Source: an uncultured Clostridia bacterium (GTDB taxonomy: Bacteria; Bacillota; Clostridia; Oscillospirales; UBA644). From it: a stretch of DNA of 64,000 nt. The DNA lies in contig CAOJUB010000002.1 in the NCBI GenBank assembly GCA_948443805.1, positions 4,910 to 68,909 on the forward strand. The letters run 5' to 3'. Of the stretch, positions 6,276-18,154 are shown piece by piece (position 1 is the stretch's first letter; each line of letters starts with the position of its first letter). The translations under genes and the position numbers were made by a program. The notes under the pieces were generated by a model. It had not been told where the DNA came from, did no database searches, and was given only the letters and a program-made list of their open reading frames with translations.

Positions 6276-6448
6276 CAGCATAACAAAGCGATAACTTTAT
6301 TTTTGATTGATAACTCTCTAAACTTTAACGTAAAAACAACTTTCAAGCTAAAAATCGATACCTCGCACATGACTTTGTGTGTTCTTCGCCGTAACCGGGG
6401 CACCGATTTGCACGGCCAAAGCGGTATAATTATGGTAAAAAGTAGCCC

Positions 6449-6507
6449 TGTTCTATGAGAAATTCTAAGAATTGCTTTTAGAAATTTCTTAGAACTCGAG
6501 CAAAAGC
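6449..6507 (+). repeat. Copy A of an imperfect ~59-bp direct repeat (partner at 17964-18022)
   Basis: Collinear identical blocks gttctat / aaattctaa / tagaactcga at the same offsets in both copies. I counted about 38 of 59 identities without gaps. Confidence 0.5.
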
Positions 6508-6638
6508 ATAGATCCTTTGCGACATTGATTTTGACACGGTTTTCGAGATGTCCCAAAAAGCCTAAAAACACGGCGATTTTCAGGCTTCCTGTAACTTCCT
6601 TTATCTTCCGTCAGATTCAGTTAACTTCTGTTTTGCGT

Positions 6639-6700
6639 GAATGACTCGAAATCAGTTTGGGAGCAATCCCACGCGGGTTCGAATCCCGCCCTCTGCGCCA
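6639..6700 (+). tRNA. 3' fragment (~62 nt) of a class II tRNA-Ser(CGA)-like gene; the 5' half is missing (att-site-type remnant)
   Basis: Anticodon arm aatga-CTCGAAA-tcagt, variable-arm hairpin tggga-gcaa-tccca, T-arm gcggg-ttcgaat-cccgc, acceptor 3' strand cctctgc + g + cca. No complementary 5' acceptor strand (gcagagg) or D-arm is present upstream. Confidence 0.7.
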
Positions 6701-6729
6701 ACGCGGCTTATGTCCGCGCAAAAAATAAG

Positions 6730-7557: not shown

Positions 7558-7834
7558 TTATTTATTATCCGTGTTCTGCACCACTTCGATAAGCAGCTGC
7601 ACTGCAAGTTTGAAGCCGGCGGTGAAAACCTGCAATTTTTTCATACCGTGCAGTTTGGATTCACCGTTTTTGAACTTTTCAAATATCTCTTTCTGCCGTT
7701 CGTTGAGTGTTGCTATCAAATCATCCTGATATCGGATGATATATCATAACATTTCACCGTATGAGCTCCCACGCTTAAAGCTGCATTCCTTCAGAATTTG
7801 TTGCCGTAATATAAATCTTCAAGTGTTGTCCTAT
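7558..7834 (-). pseudogene. Decayed small helical-protein gene of a type I associate with Firmicutes conjugative or mobile elements
   Basis: RBS aaggag + 9 nt + ATA (not ATG). There are three frame-broken pieces: HLKIYITATNSEGMQL*, ..SSYGEML*, and RYQDDLIATLNERQKEIFEKFKNGESKLHGMKKLQVFTAGFKLAVQLLIEVVQNTDNK*. The family resemblance is from memory only. Confidence 0.4.
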
Positions 7835-7931
7835 GTATTGTATCTCCTTTTGCAACACATAGATATAATACAAGATCTTTCACAGATCCAACTTTTTTCC
7901 GATATAAAATCAAAAGTACCGCGAATACGCT

Positions 7932-8123
7932 TTATTCTTGTTCTTCGGTTATTGACAAATCGATATAACAATCCTTACTTTTAAAACTTCTGCGCAAATA
8001 ATCGTGACCACCATCTACAGCGCAAGCACCACATTTACATTTTACATATTCATGGCGATCCGTTGATTCAATAATATCTCCGCATAATTTGCATTGAATT
8101 GCATTCTTAATGATCTTTCGCAT
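7932..8123 (-). CDS. Small Cys-rich zinc-ribbon protein (63 aa)
   Basis: MRKIIKNAIQCKLCGDIIESTDRHEYVKCKCGACAVDGGHDYLRR... carries CxxC...CxCxxC. The RBS aaggag lies 8 nt before the ATG at 8123. It is the last gene of the minus-strand operon. Confidence 0.6.
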   Translation of the reverse strand: MRKIIKNAIQCKLCGDIIESTDRHEYVKCKCGACAVDGGHDYLRRSFKSKDCYIDLSITEEQE

Positions 8124-8189
8124 ATGACGATCTCCTTTGTAGTACAACAACATGCCACAGGGATTTTATGAAGTCCATAGAAAACATAT

Positions 8190-10997
8190 TTATTCCGCAA
8201 GGGTCTGTTTTCTTTCAATATCGCTACAAACCATTCGTGTTACATAATTTGCATCGTGTTTACAGGTTTCAATAATATATTCATACGATTCTTTGGTAAT
8301 GCCAGGAACATGTAGAATATGTTGTAAAATCAAATTTTTAATATACACATTATCACGCTCGATCAACGAAACAATATGGCGATTAATAATTTCTCGATTA
8401 TCCGTATTTCGTAATAGCGCTAATAAAATCCTTGTGGAATTCCAACGTATATCAACATAATCTGTATGCATCCACGCAAAAGCATAATGAAGTATGGTTG
8501 TTTCTATCGGCTTCTGAAAAGCCACATTAGAAGACAGTTCTAAGTAATTAGCAATAAAACTCGTAACAGAAATTGTTGTTGCGATATTATCTTTAAGATA
8601 AGGGAATAATTCGAGTAAATCCGCATGCACATCAATACCCATAGCAGAAAATAATATTTTAAGGCTAATAGTCAATGCAATGTTATCAATATTAGATGAG
8701 AACGGAAAACTGTCACCGGCTATTATTTGTGATTCATTTTCTAATATATTTCTATAGATATCTTTATTATGTTCATACGATTTAGGATATTTTTCAATTA
8801 TGCAACATAACAGAGCAACCGCATCCATTTTAGTAGATAGTGATTCGCTTGACTCAAGCAAAGTTTGAGATACTGCTAAAATTATAGAATCAATTAAGAC
8901 ATCTTCATATTGTTGATCGCTATCTAATAATATCGATTTAATTGTGGCAATTTCTCTTGTTCCGTGACCAAAATACCTGCCGTTCTTTCCTTGTGTTTCG
9001 TTATTATTCTTGACTATTTCAAGATTCTTATTTAAGAATACCGGGTAATCTGAAACTTTATTCTCTGTAGTTTCAAGTCGATAATTATTGTAATAAAATT
9101 CCGGCAAATATGTCTCTACGGTTTTATCGAGTTCATTAGTTAATTCGCGATTTTGATTTCTAATTACACACAGAAAAAAAGGACTTCGTTTTACTAATTC
9201 ACAATCATTTTGCAAAACATCAATGATACTCGCAATTAATTTTTTTGCATTTTCCTCCCGCATTTTAGTTATATCAATTCTTTTTGATATAAGTTTAAAC
9301 ATGTCCATATACCATCGGCTAAGGCGTTTCTGAACGAATTTGCAACATATTTCTGCTAAAACATCTTGTGATAATCGATGAGACACATTTGAAAGGTTTT
9401 TAAAAACACTTTCTCCAATTGAAATATTTTTGTCTTCATCATCAATCCAAGCGTAAATAATTTTTAGCATTGAAGATTCATAAAAGCGGAATTTTTCGTC
9501 ATTTAAATAATATCCAACCGTTGCAAAGCCAAGCAATTGCTGCCGTATTCTTTTATGAGTTATTGGATGCAATGAACAAAAATCCATTATTTTTTCCGCG
9601 TCAGCATCAGAAAGCTTGCTCAGTATTTCTGGGAAAGTGTTTTGAATACCTATCACTTCTTTTTCTTTTCCGCCTCTTATTGCATACTTAAGCAAATCTC
9701 TGCGAAAAGACCAATCATCATATCTGCTTGATAAATAAAAGAGGAATTCTTTTTCTTTATCAAAAAGCATAAGGATATGTGTTAATGAACCATTATACAT
9801 AGCAACTATGAATGTACTTGCCAGCAGTTTACCAAATTCGTTCAAATTTCCGCCTAAAGAAACAGTATACGGCGACTCGGTTTTATGTTTATATAATCCT
9901 TGTATATATTTTTCTTGTAACGATTCATTACACCTATCAATCACAGGATAATACAACTCATCCTGACTTTCGTCCAATTCTTTTTGTGCTTCAGATTCAA
10001 AGTAGGTATTCTTTTGTTCGCACAGTTCCCAATGTTGATTTCGTAGATCAATCAAAATATCCTTTATAATCCACGAGGGTTGTTTTGTTTCTTTTGCAAT
10101 CTTAAGCGCATCACTGAGGTACTTTACGCTATCATCTATCTTTCCATTAAAATATGATTGAATTGCTTGCCATCTTAAACTAACAACATTAAAAACCTCT
10201 TTGTCTTGAATAGATTTCAAGCACTCTAAAAACATTGAAACATTAAACTCTTTAATAGTTTTCCCTTCGAACATGATTGGGAGAAACTGAACTCCCCAAT
10301 CATCCAGTTCACTGGTCTGTATAGGATCGTCCGGAAAGCGAGAAAATGATATTCCTGTAATAGAGCGCAATATATAATCTGTAGTTTTATCAATATTCTT
10401 TAGTACAGATTTTGGGAAACTCATGTTTTGACAAGTACTTACAGAAGTTATGTCAATGTCTTTTGTAGACTCCCATTCTGTTTCAGACATTGAGATTTTC
10501 CCTTGACAATAATAATGATAAATGCGAACTATATCACTCAACAATGCTGTTGCACCATTTTTACTAAGGTCGTTAAAGGTGTGCACAGTTTTACTTTTTG
10601 TAAAATTTGCACCCATTAAGCTTTTTTCTAATGGCGTTTTTTCTTTTTGATTTTCATCACAAAAATAGTATAATGCTTTGATCTTATTTCGCTGTACCAC
10701 ATCTATTTCTGCTTTTACGCCATCCGGTATCCCGTCAGCATTATCAATAAGAAAAATACATATATCAGAATCTTCAAGCGCAAAAGTATAATGTACTCCC
10801 GCGCTAAGTGTGGATGCTTCTTCACCCTCAAATGTATACACTTCTGCCAAACCAGTTTTTTCGATAGATTCTTTGAGTTCAGCACGAATAGGATCATACT
10901 TTGGAGGTTCCTCAGCCCTATCGCACTTTGAACTGATAAAAACCTTGATTTTTTGTGACGGTATTACTTGCATACTTTCTTTTTTTTGATTAATCAT
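8190..10997 (-). CDS. 935-aa protein: N-terminal DUF4062-like (TIR/deoxyribosyltransferase-like Rossmannoid) domain plus ~800 aa of TPR/HEAT-like helical repeats
   Basis: The N-terminus KVFISSKCD..IRAELKESIEKTGLAEVYTFEGEEAS...SDICIFLIDNADG..GVKAEIDVV..KIKALYYF follows the DUF4062 pattern as I remember it. The rest is helical-repeat-like (e.g. SVKYLSDALKIAKETKQPSWIIKDILIDLRN; IRWNSTRILLALLRNTDNREIINRHIVSLIE). No Walker A/B motif was seen. Confidence 0.7.
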   Translation of the reverse strand: MINQKKESMQVIPSQKIKVFISSKCDRAEEPPKYDPIRAELKESIEKTGLAEVYTFEGEEASTLSAGVHYTFALEDSDICIFLIDNADGIPDGVKAEIDVVQRNKIKALYYFCDENQKEKTPLEKSLMGANFTKSKTVHTFNDLSKNGATALLSDIVRIYHYYCQGKISMSETEWESTKDIDITSVSTCQNMSFPKSVLKNIDKTTDYILRSITGISFSRFPDDPIQTSELDDWGVQFLPIMFEGKTIKEFNVSMFLECLKSIQDKEVFNVVSLRWQAIQSYFNGKIDDSVKYLSDALKIAKETKQPSWIIKDILIDLRNQHWELCEQKNTYFESEAQKELDESQDELYYPVIDRCNESLQEKYIQGLYKHKTESPYTVSLGGNLNEFGKLLASTFIVAMYNGSLTHILMLFDKEKEFLFYLSSRYDDWSFRRDLLKYAIRGGKEKEVIGIQNTFPEILSKLSDADAEKIMDFCSLHPITHKRIRQQLLGFATVGYYLNDEKFRFYESSMLKIIYAWIDDEDKNISIGESVFKNLSNVSHRLSQDVLAEICCKFVQKRLSRWYMDMFKLISKRIDITKMREENAKKLIASIIDVLQNDCELVKRSPFFLCVIRNQNRELTNELDKTVETYLPEFYYNNYRLETTENKVSDYPVFLNKNLEIVKNNNETQGKNGRYFGHGTREIATIKSILLDSDQQYEDVLIDSIILAVSQTLLESSESLSTKMDAVALLCCIIEKYPKSYEHNKDIYRNILENESQIIAGDSFPFSSNIDNIALTISLKILFSAMGIDVHADLLELFPYLKDNIATTISVTSFIANYLELSSNVAFQKPIETTILHYAFAWMHTDYVDIRWNSTRILLALLRNTDNREIINRHIVSLIERDNVYIKNLILQHILHVPGITKESYEYIIETCKHDANYVTRMVCSDIERKQTLAE

Positions 10998-10998
10998 G

Positions 10999-11620
10999 CT
11001 AACGTATCCACCTTATTTTTTCTTTGTCTGAGTCATAGCTTATATCCTCAAGCATCATTTCACGATCTTGTTTTGGAAGGCTGTTTATATACTTATCCCA
11101 ATCTAAAATAGAATAATTAAAGAATGTGAACTTTTCCTTGTTCTTTTTATAGTAATTCTCTGCTGGCAAACATAGGATCATACAAAGTCTTCTTACACTA
11201 ACGCTATATTCGCGGTGCTCTACGCCATCATTATCTATTGTTAGTGTTCCTGCTTCACCACCATATATTTTAAAAGGTTTTTCAGTTTCAATAACTATTT
11301 TAAAGTGTTCAATAGGACAATTTTTCTGATTATGGCGTTTCTTATATTCGTCATTATCAAGATTAGGGTTCCCTTGATGAAATAGTGGACCTCTAAAATT
11401 ATATACAATTTCCCCACTCAAATAAGGCATGTCCGGCACTCCATCCATGGGAGGAGATTTTTTGTATTTCCCGATATGCTCTATAACGGATTGTAGAGCC
11501 CTTATTGGGATATTCAGCTTTGCCGCATATATCGGGAAGCGTTAGCGCTAATGATAAAGCAGCAAAATACAAATTATGAGATAAAGCTGTATTTATCTCT
11601 TCAATAAGTTTTATTATCAA
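10999..11620 (-). pseudogene. HEPN-like (R-x4-H) protein gene split by a frameshift in an A6 (T6 on +) tract
   Basis: ORFs 11399-11620 and 10999-11448 overlap in different frames. Joining them at the run at 11458-11463 gives ...STIRYRAYREIQK|KSPPMDGVPDMPYLSGEIVYNFRGPLFHQGNPNLD... (about 207 aa). The N-terminal helix is YFAALSLALTLPDICGKAEYP and the R-x4-H motif is RGPLFH. Its stop is 1 nt before the start of the 935-aa gene. Confidence 0.55.
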
Positions 11621-11641
11621 AGCACAATCCTCCTTTGCCGA

Positions 11642-12713
11642 CTAATTACCTTTCAAATATTTCATAAGCTGTACGGTTGCTTTGCTACGTCCCTGAACGC
11701 TTGAAAGACCGTTTTCTTTAAGTTCTCTCAGCGGATACTTGTCCGGGGCGTATTTTTCTATGAGCTTTAATCCCATATAACGGATGTCGGAATCTTTAGC
11801 CAACTCCTTATAATAGGGATAGTCCTCGTCCGAGCGGTTCCCGTACAAATCGGCGGCAATTACTTCGCATTTATACATAATGGCCTTGTATTTTTCACCG
11901 ACGTAAATATAAACGGTATCGCCAACCGACGTATTGGTGGACTGGCGCCATTCGATTACGTCCAAACTATCAAAAGCGGCTACAATATCGTAATATTTCG
12001 GATTGCACGGAATCACCCATACGTCATCAAGCCGAGAGAAAACCTGACGTCCTTCAGCTTTTGCACGAATATCATTTAACCACTCGCCGTTATACTTAAA
12101 ATAACGCGGTCCGGCAACACCCCATTTGCTACCGAGCAGTTCGGTGGCAAGGGCAGAAAGAGACAATTTTCTACCCTCATATTCCACGGTCTTATCGTCA
12201 ATAACGCTACACTGTGCACCGGAGTTTGCATTACCCTGACTAACAAACGTAATGGTAGCGCCTACGGGAATATTACACTTAGAGAATGTGAACGGTGCCA
12301 TGCGCTCGATGTGTTGTTCTTCGATATCCTGTGCCAGTTCTTCGCTCTGTCGTTCTACCGCCGTCGGCTCATACAAGTGAAGTCTATCTTTGCGACCGCC
12401 TAATACAGCGATGGTTTCAAGGATAGAATACGCCTGTTCGGGCGACATAGCGTAAAACTCACGCACTCGATTTTTACCGTCTACGTTGTCAATAGAGCGC
12501 AGATTAGGATTGAGTTGGTCGATCAGAGCATGGAGCTTTAAATCCGTCAAGCGTTCATCAACCTCGTATGTAGCATAAATGCGGAAAGAAAACGGAATGC
12601 ACTCGCTGTTATTCAGTTGTTTTAACCGTGATTCCACGTTATCGGCATAACCGATTTTTACGTATTGAGGGAATGACGGGTTTTCCAGAATATATTACTC
12701 CAGATTCTTTCAT
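11642..12713 (-). pseudogene. GIY-YIG superfamily (T5orf172/MUG113-type) N-terminus + unassigned middle module + C-terminal EVE/PUA-like domain; the 5' end is frameshifted
   Basis: The RBS gaggtg plus ATG at 12713 opens MKESGVIY..., which stops after 24 codons. The main frame reads *YILENPSFPQYVKIGYADNVESRLKQLNNSECIPFSFRIYATYEV...EFY. The C-terminus is VWVIPCNPKYYDIVAAFDSLDVIEWRQSTNTSVGDTVYIYVGEKYKAIMYKCEV. The track start at 12637 is an internal GTG. Confidence 0.6.
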
Positions 12714-12736
12714 AAGCACCTCAAATATTTGTTTTA

Positions 12737-15493
12737 TTATTGCACACAAAACCGCATCTTTTGCATTGAAAGCAACGATTGTTTAATTGACTCATAATGT
12801 TCCTCTATACCATAAGCACGTAAAACGGTAATGTCAAAATTACGCCTATCCTCCAGGGTCAACTCAACACTTGTATGCTCGACTTGTCTATCTAATAAAG
12901 GTTCAAACGCTTCTAAAATTGCATTCTTATTTTCATTAGATAAGAGTTCAGGATTAAGCATAAATGCATTTCTAATTGTTGTGCTACTTATATCTAAGGC
13001 TCCAAGCCCTCTTCCAAAACCAACCGCCTCAATATAAAACATTCCTAATATTGAATTCAATAATGCATGATATAATGATACTTCTGTATATCCAGATTTC
13101 TTTTTCAAACCAATAAGTCTTTGGTTAATAAAAGTCGGCTCATCAAACTTGGCAAAAAACAACCTTCTATCAGGATTCATAGTTGTTACTATATCAGCGG
13201 TATTGGTCGATGCCATTTCATACCATTGCATATTTCTTCTTGCTAAAACTTCAGGCAATGGACGGCCTACGCCATTTACACCATTTTGGAATCGTGCTAT
13301 CCAAGATAATGCACCTTGATGATTTTGCATCCTCAATTCATCTAAACTTAACGCACAACAAAAAGCATCATTATCTGCTTCGGCTTTAAGAGTATCTATG
13401 TTTCTTGCATTTTTAAGCACCTTTTTAATATATACTTCTTCGATGCCGTGCCCATTTTCAGGATAAAACATTGTGTCCCAACCACGGCGTTCTCCACGAA
13501 CAACAGTAAAAACAGTAGAAATAGGGCACAGTTTTTCTCTGATATCAAGTAACCAGCGTATGTTGTGGAAAAGAGCTGAAAGAGAAACGTTCATATCAGC
13601 CAATGCTGCGATTTCTGATTTTGAATACTGCTTATAGCTCATTATACTATCATTAATTTCTCTGTTCAACAAAGATGAATTTACAATAGTATCACGTATA
13701 GATGTATCTGCGTAAATTTCAGATAATTTGTTGTGCCAAACGCAAAACGCTGTTTGTTCACCATCAGTGGGATGTTCGATATGATCTTTTTTAGAAAAAA
13801 TCGTGATTATCGTAACCACCTGTGCATTATTAAACCAGCGTTCCGCATCGCTGATGTGTATTTGATCGATTTTATAATAAAAGCCAAGTGCCTTAAATAA
13901 TTCCTTTCCCGCTGTCGTACCCAACCAAGAATTTGAAGTGATTATTCCTAAACGACCATTATTTTCAATAATTTCATATAACGAAAACAAAATATATGAA
14001 TAATAATCACTTCTATTGCTTAAAGCAATATTGGTATGTTGCAGGACATTTTCTCTAATGGTATTAATATATCTCCAGTCACTATCGGATATTTTTTCAA
14101 AAGGGATAAAAGGCAAATTAGAAACTACCGTATCAAACTTCGGAATTTGAAATGTCATCGCTTCACCATTAATTGGATTGGTGATATTGATTTCATCGCC
14201 TTCTCGCAATTCAAAAACATTTTTTTGAAATATTTTGTTGGGAAGGTTAATTGCTTCGACATTTGTCATACTTATGGTTGCCAATTGTAATGGAAGTGAG
14301 AACTTATCTTCCGCCCAAGTTGAATTAACGGCATTTTCGATATTCCCCAGGTTATCCCTTTTATTATTCAATATAGCTTTTGGAATAGAGCCCGTGCCAC
14401 AACAAGGATCTATCGCATTACCAGACCAATTTAGCGTTGTCAAACAAACTAATAATTCTGCTAATATATCCGGGGTAGTAAACTGACCATTTAACTCTCT
14501 TTTAGTAATAGCTACAGTTTTCTCGAGAACATTTTGAAGAGTACCTTGCTCAATTTGACGAAGTCCATTGTCTTTTAAGAAAATATTTAAATCCATCAGA
14601 TCATGCCAAGTGTCCGCTGGGATGTGGTCATTATGTTCTATACTATTAAAAATATTAAAAAAGTCACATGTTGCAGTAATATTTTGAAAGATTTCGTTTG
14701 CATGATTTACTTCAGACTCAAAATCTAATGTTTCAATAGTCAGAGCACCATTATGACGCGATTTTATTAAATGCGCAAAAATGATTCTGTTAGTCCAATT
14801 TATAAGAAGTGCTTTAGCATATGCATCATACATATTAGTTTCATCATAGGTGTACTCTGTTTGTACTTCGTTCCACCATACTGATAAAAACGCATTGATT
14901 CTTGCATCTAAAACAGCTGCACTATGCAATTCTGCGCTGACCAATGTTTTGTTTCGTTCAATAATTTTGGAAATAATTGTATCCGATAAAAATTCACCAA
15001 TCTCTGTTCCGCGAATATCGCCTGATATTAAGAATGCATTTATTTCTATAAGTATTCTTTCGATAATTGGCAGCCACTCATTTTTGTATCTTTCAACATC
15101 TTCTCGTGTTTGTATATGGTTGGTTTCATTCCACTGCCGAACAATCTCGAACTCATCATCTTCATTTTTTACATATAGCACACCTGCTGTAAAGTTCCAT
15201 ATAAAACAACTATTCAGTCCTAATGAACGTGCTTTACGTATCGCATCTTCAATAAAAGCATTGTCAGTTATGGTGGTATCGGGCAGTTTCAACTCCCAAC
15301 CTTGCAGAATTTGTGTTTGATTCTCGTCGCCATAAAGCAACACATCTGGGAACATGCTTCTATGGCCTGTTGAAATCGTACTTTCTCCTCCTGCTCTTAC
15401 GATTCGCAAGCCCATAGTTTGCAGTTTAATATTTATATCTGAAATCATAGAGATTGCCCAACTACGTTCATTTCGTCTTACTATTGTCGGCAT
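12737..15493 (-). CDS. Type IIG (Eco57I-like) bifunctional restriction endonuclease / gamma-class N6-adenine methyltransferase, 918 aa
   Basis: N-terminal PD-(D/E)xK candidate FPDVLLYGD...QGWELKLPD. MTase motif I NAIDPCCGTGSIPKA precedes motif IV VVSNLPFIPF. A long C-terminal region is consistent with a target-recognition domain. Confidence 0.65.
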   Translation of the reverse strand: MPTIVRRNERSWAISMISDINIKLQTMGLRIVRAGGESTISTGHRSMFPDVLLYGDENQTQILQGWELKLPDTTITDNAFIEDAIRKARSLGLNSCFIWNFTAGVLYVKNEDDEFEIVRQWNETNHIQTREDVERYKNEWLPIIERILIEINAFLISGDIRGTEIGEFLSDTIISKIIERNKTLVSAELHSAAVLDARINAFLSVWWNEVQTEYTYDETNMYDAYAKALLINWTNRIIFAHLIKSRHNGALTIETLDFESEVNHANEIFQNITATCDFFNIFNSIEHNDHIPADTWHDLMDLNIFLKDNGLRQIEQGTLQNVLEKTVAITKRELNGQFTTPDILAELLVCLTTLNWSGNAIDPCCGTGSIPKAILNNKRDNLGNIENAVNSTWAEDKFSLPLQLATISMTNVEAINLPNKIFQKNVFELREGDEINITNPINGEAMTFQIPKFDTVVSNLPFIPFEKISDSDWRYINTIRENVLQHTNIALSNRSDYYSYILFSLYEIIENNGRLGIITSNSWLGTTAGKELFKALGFYYKIDQIHISDAERWFNNAQVVTIITIFSKKDHIEHPTDGEQTAFCVWHNKLSEIYADTSIRDTIVNSSLLNREINDSIMSYKQYSKSEIAALADMNVSLSALFHNIRWLLDIREKLCPISTVFTVVRGERRGWDTMFYPENGHGIEEVYIKKVLKNARNIDTLKAEADNDAFCCALSLDELRMQNHQGALSWIARFQNGVNGVGRPLPEVLARRNMQWYEMASTNTADIVTTMNPDRRLFFAKFDEPTFINQRLIGLKKKSGYTEVSLYHALLNSILGMFYIEAVGFGRGLGALDISSTTIRNAFMLNPELLSNENKNAILEAFEPLLDRQVEHTSVELTLEDRRNFDITVLRAYGIEEHYESIKQSLLSMQKMRFCVQ

Positions 15494-15498
15494 ATTCT

Positions 15499-16350
15499 TT
15501 ACCTCGTTTCAAATTCTGAAATCAAATTTGTTGATGCTATATGACTCTTTGTTTTTTTATCAATAGATTCCCACGCTAAAAATAGTCGTCTTTTAGCAAC
15601 GTCAATATAATCAATTTCATCTTTTTTAAATAATGCAACATCTTCGTTTTTTTCTATTCCTATAAAGTTTCTGCCTTCCATTAAAGCTGCAACTAAAAAT
15701 GAACCGCTACCAAAGGTGTTGTCTAAAATCACATCTCCTGGATTAGAATATGTTTTGATAAAATAGCGTCCTAATTCTACTGGCTTTTGCGTAGGGTGAA
15801 CGACCTCGCCTTCGCACTCTGCTGTCTTAATATAAATTATATCAGTAGGGTAACGTTCTCCATCACTCTGAACGTGTACTGGTTGAAAATCGCCATAACT
15901 ACCACTCAATTGGTTTTTGCGAACACCTTTATCGTAGGGAACACCACTCGTCATTTGTGGGTTATATGTTGGTTGCTTTTTGTAAAATACACACACATCT
16001 TCGTGTTTTCTGAGCGGTTGTTTTTTTGCATTCAGGAAATTAGTTGGCTTCGATTTTTCCCAAATCCACTTGTATTTATAAAGATTCGGCTGACTTAATA
16101 TAAGTTTTGCAGTAAACAGACCTTGCGATGTCAAAACTATGGCACCATTAGGTTTTATTATCCTATTGTATTGTTCCCACAGTTGTTCTAATGGAATATA
16201 ACTATCCCATTGGTTTTGTGTGATTCCATACGGCAAATCGCATAAAATCATATCTATGCTTTCATCGGGCAATTTTTTCATCACCTCAATGCAGTCACCT
16301 TCAAACAATTTATTAACCAATGGATATATTTTTGATGTAATATCAATCAT
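15499..16350 (-). CDS. Beta-class site-specific DNA methyltransferase (N6A/N4C; PF01555-like), 283 aa
   Basis: Motif IV ILCDLPYG, then HPTQKP, then motif I ILDNTFGSGSFLVAA. A 5-nt gap separates it from the downstream IIG gene. Confidence 0.9.
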   Translation of the reverse strand: MIDITSKIYPLVNKLFEGDCIEVMKKLPDESIDMILCDLPYGITQNQWDSYIPLEQLWEQYNRIIKPNGAIVLTSQGLFTAKLILSQPNLYKYKWIWEKSKPTNFLNAKKQPLRKHEDVCVFYKKQPTYNPQMTSGVPYDKGVRKNQLSGSYGDFQPVHVQSDGERYPTDIIYIKTAECEGEVVHPTQKPVELGRYFIKTYSNPGDVILDNTFGSGSFLVAALMEGRNFIGIEKNEDVALFKKDEIDYIDVAKRRLFLAWESIDKKTKSHIASTNLISEFETR

Positions 16351-16467
16351 TATTTTTGCTCCTATAACATTCTTGAGTTAATTTTCCAAACTGTATCATC
16401 CAAAACGAGATGATTAGGTTATTTCAGCCTAACACCGTTTTATTGTGGTCGGCTTCCAGCTTTACTT

Positions 16468-17830: not shown

Positions 17831-17838
17831 CCGAATAA

Positions 17839-17863
17839 AGTGAAAATTCAGCGAATTTTCACT
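17839..17863. repeat. Perfect 11-bp inverted repeat with a 3-nt spacer (agtgaaaattc agc gaattttcact), just upstream of the -35
   Basis: Read directly from the sequence. It is operator-like. Confidence 0.55.
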
Positions 17864-17963
17864 TTAAAAGAGAATAAACCTACACAATTTTGTGTTTCGT
17901 ATGCCTCAACCGGTGCTTTTTATTGCACTGCCAAATGGGTGATTTTCGTGTGAAAACACCCGC

Positions 17964-18022
17964 AGTTCTATCAAAAATTCTAATAGGCTTTCCCGAAAAT
18001 CCGCTAGAACTCGATGAAATCG
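17964..18022 (+). repeat. Copy B of the imperfect ~59-bp direct repeat (partner at 6449-6507), at the AT-rich/GC-rich transition
   Basis: See copy A. Confidence 0.5.
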
Positions 18023-18154
18023 GAGGAGACTTTCAGACTCGGATTTTCACTGTGTTAATGTAAGAAATTCAGGGGCACTCAAAAAGTATCGAGAGAAACT
18101 GTCAATCTCCTCCAGCAGATAAAAAAACGAATACAGAAGCATTTCCGTCTGTAT

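Follow-up and report, generated by a model that had tools for sequence, protein, structure and literature searches.

A tightly packed six-gene defence array in an uncultured Clostridia bacterium, probably assembled from separable modules

This report concerns a tightly packed array of six genes, headed by a restriction-modification (R-M) pair of the type IIG kind, in the genome of an uncultured Clostridia bacterium of the order Oscillospirales (GenBank assembly GCA_948443805.1). The stretch of DNA that was analysed, here called the window, comprises 64,000 nucleotides (nt) of contig CAOJUB010000002.1 (positions 4,910 to 68,909), and all window positions given below are counted from its first letter. 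A first-pass annotation, made from the letters alone, had described six co-directional genes separated by 5, 23, 21, 1 and 66 nt and had read them as one layered immunity operon. The arrangement itself is confirmed, on the minus strand, by the open reading frame (ORF) calls and by the sequence:

16350 to 15499, minus strand: methyltransferase (MTase), 283 amino acids (aa), intact (ORF calls and sequence)
15493 to 12737, minus strand: type IIG enzyme, 918 aa, intact (ORF calls and sequence)
ATG at 12713 to stop at 11642, minus strand: gene 3, a GIY-YIG/T5orf172 gene, pseudogene
TTG at 11620 to stop at 10999, minus strand: gene 4, a small R-x4-H gene, pseudogene
10997 to 8190, minus strand: gene 5, a large protein of 935 aa, intact
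ATG at 8123 (alternative 8153) to 7932, minus strand: DUF7695 gene, 63 or 73 aa

The last gap would be 36 nt instead of 66 nt if the DUF7695 gene began at the ATG at 8153; the start at 8123 is favoured by a strong ribosome-binding site (RBS), aaaggaga, and by relatives that have been called from the same start. The whole array sits in a low-GC stretch (0.31-0.42, against ~0.47 beyond it) that ends at the pst operon.

The two genes at the head of the array form a recognisable unit. The 918-aa enzyme matches the PADLOC profile REase_MTase_IIG over essentially its full length (1.3e-257; residues 5-917 against positions 7-931 of 935) and lies above the Pfam cut-offs for N6_Mtase (1e-11) and Eco57I (8.5e-10). 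Its translation contains the gamma-class N6A methylase core motifs DPCCGTGS and NLPF and a C-terminal specificity region, while a PD..ExK-like motif, FPDVLL..GWELK, was spotted by eye at residues ~48-70 of an N-terminus that has no profile or structure match. No close solved structure was found for the enzyme, the only PDB sequence match being to the methylase core of M.BseCI (4e-7). The 283-aa protein is a beta-class N6A/N4C methylase (Pfam N6_N4_Mtase, 1.9e-26; PADLOC MTase_II, 2.6e-69). Eco57I-type systems consist of a bifunctional R-M enzyme and a separate methylase, and the window's pair resembles them both in its large polypeptide (~900-1000 aa), with putative nuclease motif, gamma-class N6A core and specificity region, and in the separate methylase gene that lies directly beside it and is conserved with it as a unit. 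It differs in the companion, which here is a 283-aa beta-class N6_N4 methylase, whereas M.Eco57I is of the large type. The Eco57I-type pairing proposed in the first-pass annotation is thus borne out by the full-length IIG match, the Pfam Eco57I and N6_Mtase matches and the retention of the pair in all three relatives described next.

These relatives are the basis for separating the pair from what follows it. The 918-aa enzyme is 94% identical in aa to that of L018, a metagenome-assembled genome of the Acutalibacteraceae, 84% to that of L019 and 46% to that of G265; in each case the methylase gene lies directly upstream of the enzyme gene (97.5%, 84% and 67% aa identity, respectively). Searching 400 genomes of the class for more relatives of the enzyme yielded one. 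Neither genes 3 to 6 nor the Schlafen gene that lies upstream of the window's array occur within 8 kb of the pair in any of the three. The first-pass annotation had tied the pair to the downstream genes and had suggested a survey of gene neighbourhoods; in the event none of the three relatives of the pair carries those genes, and thus the tie does not hold. Other genes take their place: a PDC-S60-like gene of 499 aa, 20 nt downstream of the pair, in L018; Hachiman (HamA, HamB) in L019; and Gabija (GajA, GajB) in G265, where stop and start codons overlap. Tight packing at this position therefore also involves systems that are known to work alone. In the G265 locus (L160, G265:C16, 3677-11257) the methylase, the IIG enzyme, GajA and GajB follow one another in that order, the enzyme and GajA genes overlapping by 8 nt, and an 81-aa helix-turn-helix (HTH) gene, controller-like, overlaps the methylase start; here the restriction pair and Gabija are joined as one operon-like array.

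The breaks in DNA homology fall at the edges of genes. The homology with L018 runs from 16417 to 12717 and stops just before the ATG of gene 3, so placed that the RBS is also shared, and by blastn the homology with cassettes that carry gene 3 begins at 12715, as against the end of the R-M module at 12717. Further along, two cassettes that are 94% identical differ by the presence or absence of gene 4. Taken together, the retention of the pair with other downstream genes, the homology breaks at gene edges and the gene 4 indel support separability, and we think it likely that the array is an operon-like accretion of separable, independent defence modules, probably co-transcribed, rather than one integrated six-gene machine. 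The idea of a single layered operon cannot be maintained in its original form, given relatives of the pair that lack the downstream genes, homology that breaks at gene boundaries and two dead genes among the six; it is true only loosely, in that several defences share one locus.

The spacing and signals within the array bear on its transcription. A consensus scan of the minus strand from 18300 to 7000 found nothing terminator-like, in agreement with the first-pass annotation, and 50 promoter-like sites as against 42.4 +/- 6.9 in shuffled sequence, a frequency therefore no higher than chance. Among same-strand neighbours in the rest of the window, 38% of pairs are at most 25 nt apart and 59% at most 66 nt. 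The spacing in the array is typical for operons, yet neither rare nor extraordinary, and the short gaps and the missing terminator are compatible with co-transcription, for which they are weak evidence.

Of the downstream genes, gene 3 is the most instructive, although the copy in the window is broken. The ATG at 12713 opens a frame of only 24 codons (MKESGVIY...), and the long frame, 12637 to 11642, is offset from it. A DNA alignment with four homologues places the lesion, a loss of 2 nt, between 12695 and 12694 in codon 7, where the window reads GTAA--TATATTCT against GTAATTTATATTCT in the homologues; the frameshift separates the GIY and YIG motifs from the remainder of the protein. Intact homologues are ~356 aa long and are labelled 'GIY-YIG nuclease family protein' by NCBI. 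Residues 1-220 match the PADLOC candidate PDC-S57 (2.6e-77), and an intact homologue matches Pfam T5orf172 (1.4e-12) as well as MUG113. The architecture comprises a T5orf172 domain (GIY-YIG clan), a middle domain and a C-terminal PUA-like domain; we refer to the family as T5orf172-PUA.

The last ~135 residues gave no significant Pfam match and none at all to EVE (PF01878) at E <= 10; EVE appears below threshold, at E 0.024, in two of ten homologous C-terminal domains, and a profile of the PUA-like domain found only a chance match (E 0.83) among PDB sequences. The evidence for a fold comes from the AlphaFold model (pLDDT 78.9), for which the best Foldseek match is the ASCH protein 5y6b of Zymomonas mobilis (E 9e-4, probability 1.0, TM 0.54), followed by the ASC-1-like 3iuw of E. 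faecalis and, more weakly, by YTH (YTHDC1), while the N-terminal domain finds its match in the GIY-YIG nuclease Slx1. By this modelled structure the C-terminal domain belongs to the PUA-like superfamily fold (ASCH/EVE/YTH), membership of the EVE family itself not being supported. The ASCH, ASC-1, YTH and Slx1 matches mean that the first-pass description of a GIY-YIG nuclease with a reader-type domain holds at the level of the fold; what does not carry over is the EVE assignment, which is unconfirmed, and a working gene, the 2-nt loss having made this copy a pseudogene. Elsewhere in the Clostridia (L120-L130) the same PUA-like domain is fused to YjbR/MmcQ-like N-terminal domains (~8 genomes) and, in a single case, to an HNH nuclease at the C-terminus, and these fusions suggest that it is a mobile module for reading nucleic acids.

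The surroundings of T5orf172-PUA were compared in seven distinct contexts:

Window: type IIG pair upstream, gap to T5orf172-PUA 23 nt
L001: type III system upstream, gap 11 nt
L142: type III system upstream, gap 13 nt
L108: type I system upstream, gap 19 nt
L157: type I system upstream, gap 43 nt
L148: MmeI-like enzyme and methylase upstream, gap 12 nt
L153: 70-aa HTH gene 8 nt upstream, T5orf172-PUA 78 nt before a C5-methylase/HaeIII-like pair

T5orf172-PUA adjoins an R-M system in every one of them, the type of the system varying, and in six it lies 11-43 nt after the last R-M gene (two of type I, two IIG or MmeI-like, two of type III). What follows it is just as varied: the R-x4-H gene, a Schlafen AlbA_2 gene, a SIR2-APAZ-pAgo fusion, a ThsA-like SIR2 gene, a Schlafen-type helicase or the 935-aa gene. 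Short homologues consisting of the PDC-S57 part only lie inside type I operons in four of ~8 genomes. A search for more contexts in 400 genomes of the phylum returned only the genome under study, and one in viral contigs gave a single irrelevant match.

An association of the T5orf172 domain with restriction has some precedent. PF10544 (T5orf172) is among the R-M-associated families of the 2011 list of Makarova and the 2018 list of Doron, as these are quoted in PMC7251935. YeeC, of the DnmA/YeeA-YeeB-YeeC cluster of B. subtilis, is a T5orf172 protein for which no phage phenotype has been seen so far (PMC9973331). Gene 3 is like YeeC in having this domain and in adjoining methyltransferase or restriction genes, but the window's family differs from YeeC and PDC-S57 by its additional C-terminal PUA-like domain, the want of a helicase partner and its attachment to complete R-M systems equipped with a nuclease of their own; in any such comparison the copy in this genome is a broken one. 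A literature search for the PUA-fused, R-M-trailing form of T5orf172 gave no paper on such proteins. T5orf172-PUA probably serves as an accessory, type IV-like nuclease. One may go further and propose, tentatively and as a possibility that we would not rate as probable, that it represents an uncharacterised 'restriction-trailing' class whose genes dock at the 3' ends of operons of types I, IIG and III, a second nuclease that would read modification or damage, either as a type IV-like enzyme or as a guard backing up the R-M system ahead of it, and whose conserved stop-RBS-start junction would be the entry point for exchanged defence genes such as R-x4-H, Schlafen, SIR2-pAgo and NIR-HEAT (the domain architecture discussed under gene 5).

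Gene 4 is likewise broken, into ORFs at 11620 to 11399 and 11448 to 10999. Alignment with L142, L101 and L108 shows that 14 nt are missing between 11482 and 11481, and in the protein alignment this deletion takes out the conserved segment KLWYD. Slippage in an A6/T6 homopolymer was considered as the lesion and was ruled out by the alignment, which places the 14-nt deletion upstream of the run. The family counts at least 835 homologues of ~206 aa (197-210 aa in intact members), and in 22 sequences R76 and H81 (R-x4-H) are invariant. It has no Pfam, NCBIfam, PADLOC or PDB-profile matches, the Pfam search over the 22 members giving only noise, and HEPN-like character is therefore a hypothesis founded on the motif only.

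The members of the R-x4-H family keep company with restriction genes. In a type I operon found on more than 1000 contigs, a 47%-identical member separates hsdM/RhuM from hsdS. Closer members come after T5orf172-PUA where that gene trails a type I or a type III system, and one stands beside a HinfI-type pair. Type I operons of gut Clostridia (L102-L107, L157) have passengers embedded between hsdM, hsdS and hsdR: in the operon on more than 1000 contigs these are RhuM and the R-x4-H protein, there 197 aa long; a second operon contains AbiJ_NTD4, a PIN protein and two proteins of unknown kind.

In L001 the cassette follows a type III system and is 94% identical to the window's in DNA, with gene 4 precisely missing (blastn; window 10963 to 7799 against L001 10005 to 13185). 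Its large protein takes over the TTG and RBS of gene 4, giving 925 aa instead of 935 aa, and the arrangement appears to have arisen from the window's by an in-frame deletion, as a second, independent loss of gene 4.

PrrC is an effector encoded within the EcoprrI type I operon and is described as 'restriction-linked'. The R-x4-H and short PDC-S57 genes resemble it in lying inside or directly behind R-M operons and in the same direction; they differ in having no sequence relation to PrrC, no ATPase domain and no fixed type of R-M partner.

Gene 5 is intact. The AlphaFold model of the 935-aa protein (pLDDT 87.9) consists of a five-stranded alpha/beta domain (residues 17-165) and a helical solenoid (196-935). 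Foldseek with the whole model finds only HEAT/ARM solenoids (CAND1, PP2A-A, importins), at TM scores that are low because the curvature of the solenoid differs; in such a search the solenoid dominates over the N-terminal domain. At their cut-offs Pfam, NCBIfam and PADLOC gave no matches to the window sequences of gene 5 or gene 4, Pfam DUF4062 reaching E = 0.1 for the 935-aa protein. Two distant members of the family do stand above the DUF4062 cut-off (28.9 and 27.3 bits), and the family also matches CAP12-PCTIR_TIR (6e-5) and Nuc_deoxyrib_tr (9e-6). Among 55 family sequences with identities as low as 22%, every one has F20, and E97 is at least 90% conserved. The family is large, with 669 clusters at 50% identity, nearly all of 900-960 aa. 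The gene is missing from 60 related genomes, tblastn of the protein against plasmids gave no match, and looking up the clusters of ten remote family members yielded no protein names.

Three 2026 preprints identify DUF4062 (NIR) as a TIR-like NADase of single-gene abortive-infection systems (bioRxiv 10.64898/2026.09.04.749371, 10.64898/2026.05.01.722283, 10.64898/2026.06.25.731849). Vulcan is a single protein with an N-terminal NIR domain, C-terminal HEAT repeats and the catalytic residue E98 (bioRxiv 10.64898/2026.09.04.749371), while Swarozyc and Evangelion combine DUF4062 with an auxiliary region (bioRxiv 10.64898/2026.05.01.722283, 10.64898/2026.06.25.731849); the catalytic positions published in the latter two are E97 for KpSwz and F11/E87 for Eva01. 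The 935-aa protein is like Vulcan in its putatively DUF4062/NIR-like N-terminal five-stranded alpha/beta domain, with weak-to-significant family matches to DUF4062, TIR and NDT, and in the HEAT-like solenoid that follows. The spacing of F20 and E97 matches that of F11 and E87 in Eva01, and E97 of KpSwz and E98 of Vulcan lie at similar positions. The variable neighbours of the gene are also what a single-gene system would have. The tested Vulcan protein comes from Enterobacter, whereas the 935-aa family occurs in gut Clostridia, often 0-40 nt behind restriction-type genes, and the two are likened by architecture and the conserved Glu, not by sequence alignment. On this analysis the 935-aa protein probably constitutes, like Vulcan, an abortive-infection system made up of one NADase protein; the first-pass suggestion of an abortive-infection-type effector is a plausible one for gene 5, given the putative DUF4062/TIR-like domain, the conserved E97 and the HEAT-like solenoid.

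Across 97 loci the gene has ~15 kinds of upstream neighbours or none. They include a DUF262-HNH restriction-type enzyme (34 near-identical loci), PDC-S18/DUF5655, KilA-N and T5orf172-PUA, as well as a 1364-aa ResIII+Eco57I enzyme, IIG-like enzymes of 843-860 aa, RloB-like and Fic proteins and others. Two loci of one lineage, L083 (4298-4480) and L089 (6327-6509), hold a 61-aa remnant of a T5orf172-PUA C-terminus, 74-79% identical, 25 nt upstream of a ~51%-identical homologue of the 935-aa protein; this points to an older junction of T5orf172-PUA and the large protein that was truncated later. The small zinc-ribbon-like protein encoded last in the array matches Pfam DUF7695 (9e-28); its gene follows the 935-aa gene only in L001-L004, relatives at least 92% identical, and does not occur at 90 further loci of the family.

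If the array is an accretion of modules on a low-GC island beside the pst operon, its parts may be pictured as follows. By the Eco57I paradigm the first module would be self-sufficient, the 918-aa enzyme methylating one strand of an asymmetric site and cutting unmodified DNA at a distance, and the 283-aa methylase protecting the other strand. The second, T5orf172-PUA, would be a type IV-like accessory nuclease, and the third is the ~206-aa R-x4-H protein, of a sort that lodges inside or behind restriction operons; both are dead here. The fourth, the 935-aa protein, would most likely act alone: on the model of Vulcan and Swarozyc, its solenoid would sense a phage protein and its TIR-like domain, with Glu97, would deplete NAD+, leading to abortive infection. 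The small zinc-ribbon gene follows it. The genes would probably be co-transcribed without needing one another, and modules would be swapped at gene boundaries, so that each newcomer would inherit the preceding RBS.

Several observations weigh against so independent a set of modules. Co-transcription, and the reality of both small deletions, rest on the assembly alone. T5orf172-PUA and R-x4-H are found beside restriction operons repeatedly and tightly, beyond simple clustering in islands, and this may reflect a functional tie to restriction that a view of independent modules underrates; the 935-aa family, too, often lies 0-40 nt behind restriction-type enzymes (IIG-like, ResIII+Eco57I, DUF262-HNH). 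The assignment of gene 5 as an NADase is weak for the window's own sequence, with its DUF4062 E-value of 0.1, and leans on other family members, the topology of the fold and one conserved Glu. Finally, the independent contexts are few, seven for T5orf172-PUA and three for the R-M pair, because many of the metagenomic loci are near-duplicates.

A stricter form of layering may apply to T5orf172-PUA and R-x4-H, as passengers that back up or guard whichever R-M system precedes them, and the adjacency is striking. In its full form such a scheme would make the trailing genes (T5orf172-PUA, R-x4-H and perhaps the 935-aa gene) latent back-ups, held by or monitoring the restriction enzyme and set off by phages that block or escape restriction, like PrrC in EcoprrI, with a layering generic to any type of R-M system. 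The adjacency of T5orf172-PUA to R-M systems in seven of seven contexts whatever their type would be accounted for, as would the short PDC-S57 homologues within type I operons (four of ~8 genomes), the position of the R-x4-H family between hsdM and hsdS (more than 1000 contigs), gaps of 8-43 nt that suggest shared transcripts, and the place of PF10544 among the R-M-associated families of Makarova 2011 and Doron 2018, so far as PMC7251935 quotes them. We nevertheless consider it unlikely: there is no conserved partner, and the free change of R-M type speaks against specific contact between proteins; the genes that follow T5orf172-PUA include stand-alone systems (the SIR2-APAZ-pAgo fusion, the ThsA-like SIR2); R-M systems are the commonest island genes, so that some adjacency is to be expected; and in this genome neither candidate guard has survived, although the R-M pair has.

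Another way to save all six genes is to suppose that both frame breaks are errors of assembly or consensus, and that every gene is intact in the living organism. The genome is a draft in 35 contigs, and the 2-nt loss in gene 3 falls in a short (AT)n run; a deletion of 14 nt is atypical for a consensus error, however, and neither lesion lies within a long homopolymer. The sister lineage L001 also lacks the R-x4-H gene, there by a clean deletion, and decay of gene 4 in this cassette therefore has a precedent. Errors at both places are, to our mind, quite improbable. Phase variation was considered for the two lesions and rejected, there being no long repeat tract but only (AT)3 at one and the 14-nt deletion at the other.

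The integrated six-gene system, in which the methylases would set a mark, the GIY-YIG-EVE protein would read modified bases and a HEPN/large-protein cassette would execute abortive infection, has in its favour the tight spacing without a predicted terminator, the PUA-like fold of gene 3 and the presence of a methylase and a reader-type domain within one array, but must be judged very improbable indeed when none of three relatives of the R-M pair has the downstream genes, the edges of the cassettes coincide with the edges of genes, two of six genes are inactivated, T5orf172-PUA stands intact beside type I, III and MmeI-like systems of unrelated specificities, and a reader of its neighbour's own m6A mark would attack self DNA.

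Two further features adjoin the array, and the edges of the block in which it lies can be roughly traced:

17769 to 16468, minus strand: Schlafen AlbA_2 gene, 433 aa, a seventh co-directional gene, upstream of the array
7799 to 7898, minus strand: DUF6809 gene remnant (5' end, matched by blastn), start codon lost

The Schlafen gene lies 117 nt upstream of the MTase gene and has a good promoter-like site at 17830-17802; its protein matches Pfam SLFN_AlbA_2 (2.9e-24) and HATPase_c_4 (4e-14) and also has a winged HTH. It stands outside the conserved R-M module, the homology with L018 beginning only at 16417. Distantly related Schlafen AlbA_2 genes come after the R-x4-H gene in L142 and L108.

At the other end the cassette homology stops at 7799, window 7898 to 7799 matching L101 9404 to 9504 by blastn. 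Downstream of the DUF7695 gene there is a decayed DUF6809 gene, the opening ~100 nt of which correspond to the 5' part of DUF6809 in L001 and L101, and at 7560-7750 on the minus strand a DUF6809-like C-terminal reading (…LNERQKEIFEKFK…) is found in a different register. The flanks of the 11.5-kb block, 6367-6701 and 17833-18056, match positions 195-583 of L142 at 70% and 83%, respectively, a non-coding stretch next to the integrase of a mobilisable element. The two are similar to each other only weakly (65-75% over 50-95 nt, blastn), and a flanking direct repeat of ~59 bp, which had been considered, was not recovered by a repeat search, blastn giving diverged similarity only. Since both flanks match the same stretch of L142, the block may be bracketed by diverged element ends.

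Genes packed as tightly as these in a defence island are easily mistaken for a new multi-gene system; here the relatives reveal a chain of exchangeable modules, two members of which have decayed. The basic picture of defence islands is unchanged by this, and what has been gained are concrete candidates that are cheap to test. T5orf172-PUA is a gene indifferent to the type of restriction system and always beside an R-M operon in the seven contexts seen, and a family of R-x4-H proteins of ~200 aa is embedded in type I operons on more than 1000 metagenomic contigs. The 935-aa family of gut Clostridia, for its part, fits the architecture of the NIR/DUF4062-HEAT NADases, and would extend that architecture to abundant Firmicutes of the human gut.

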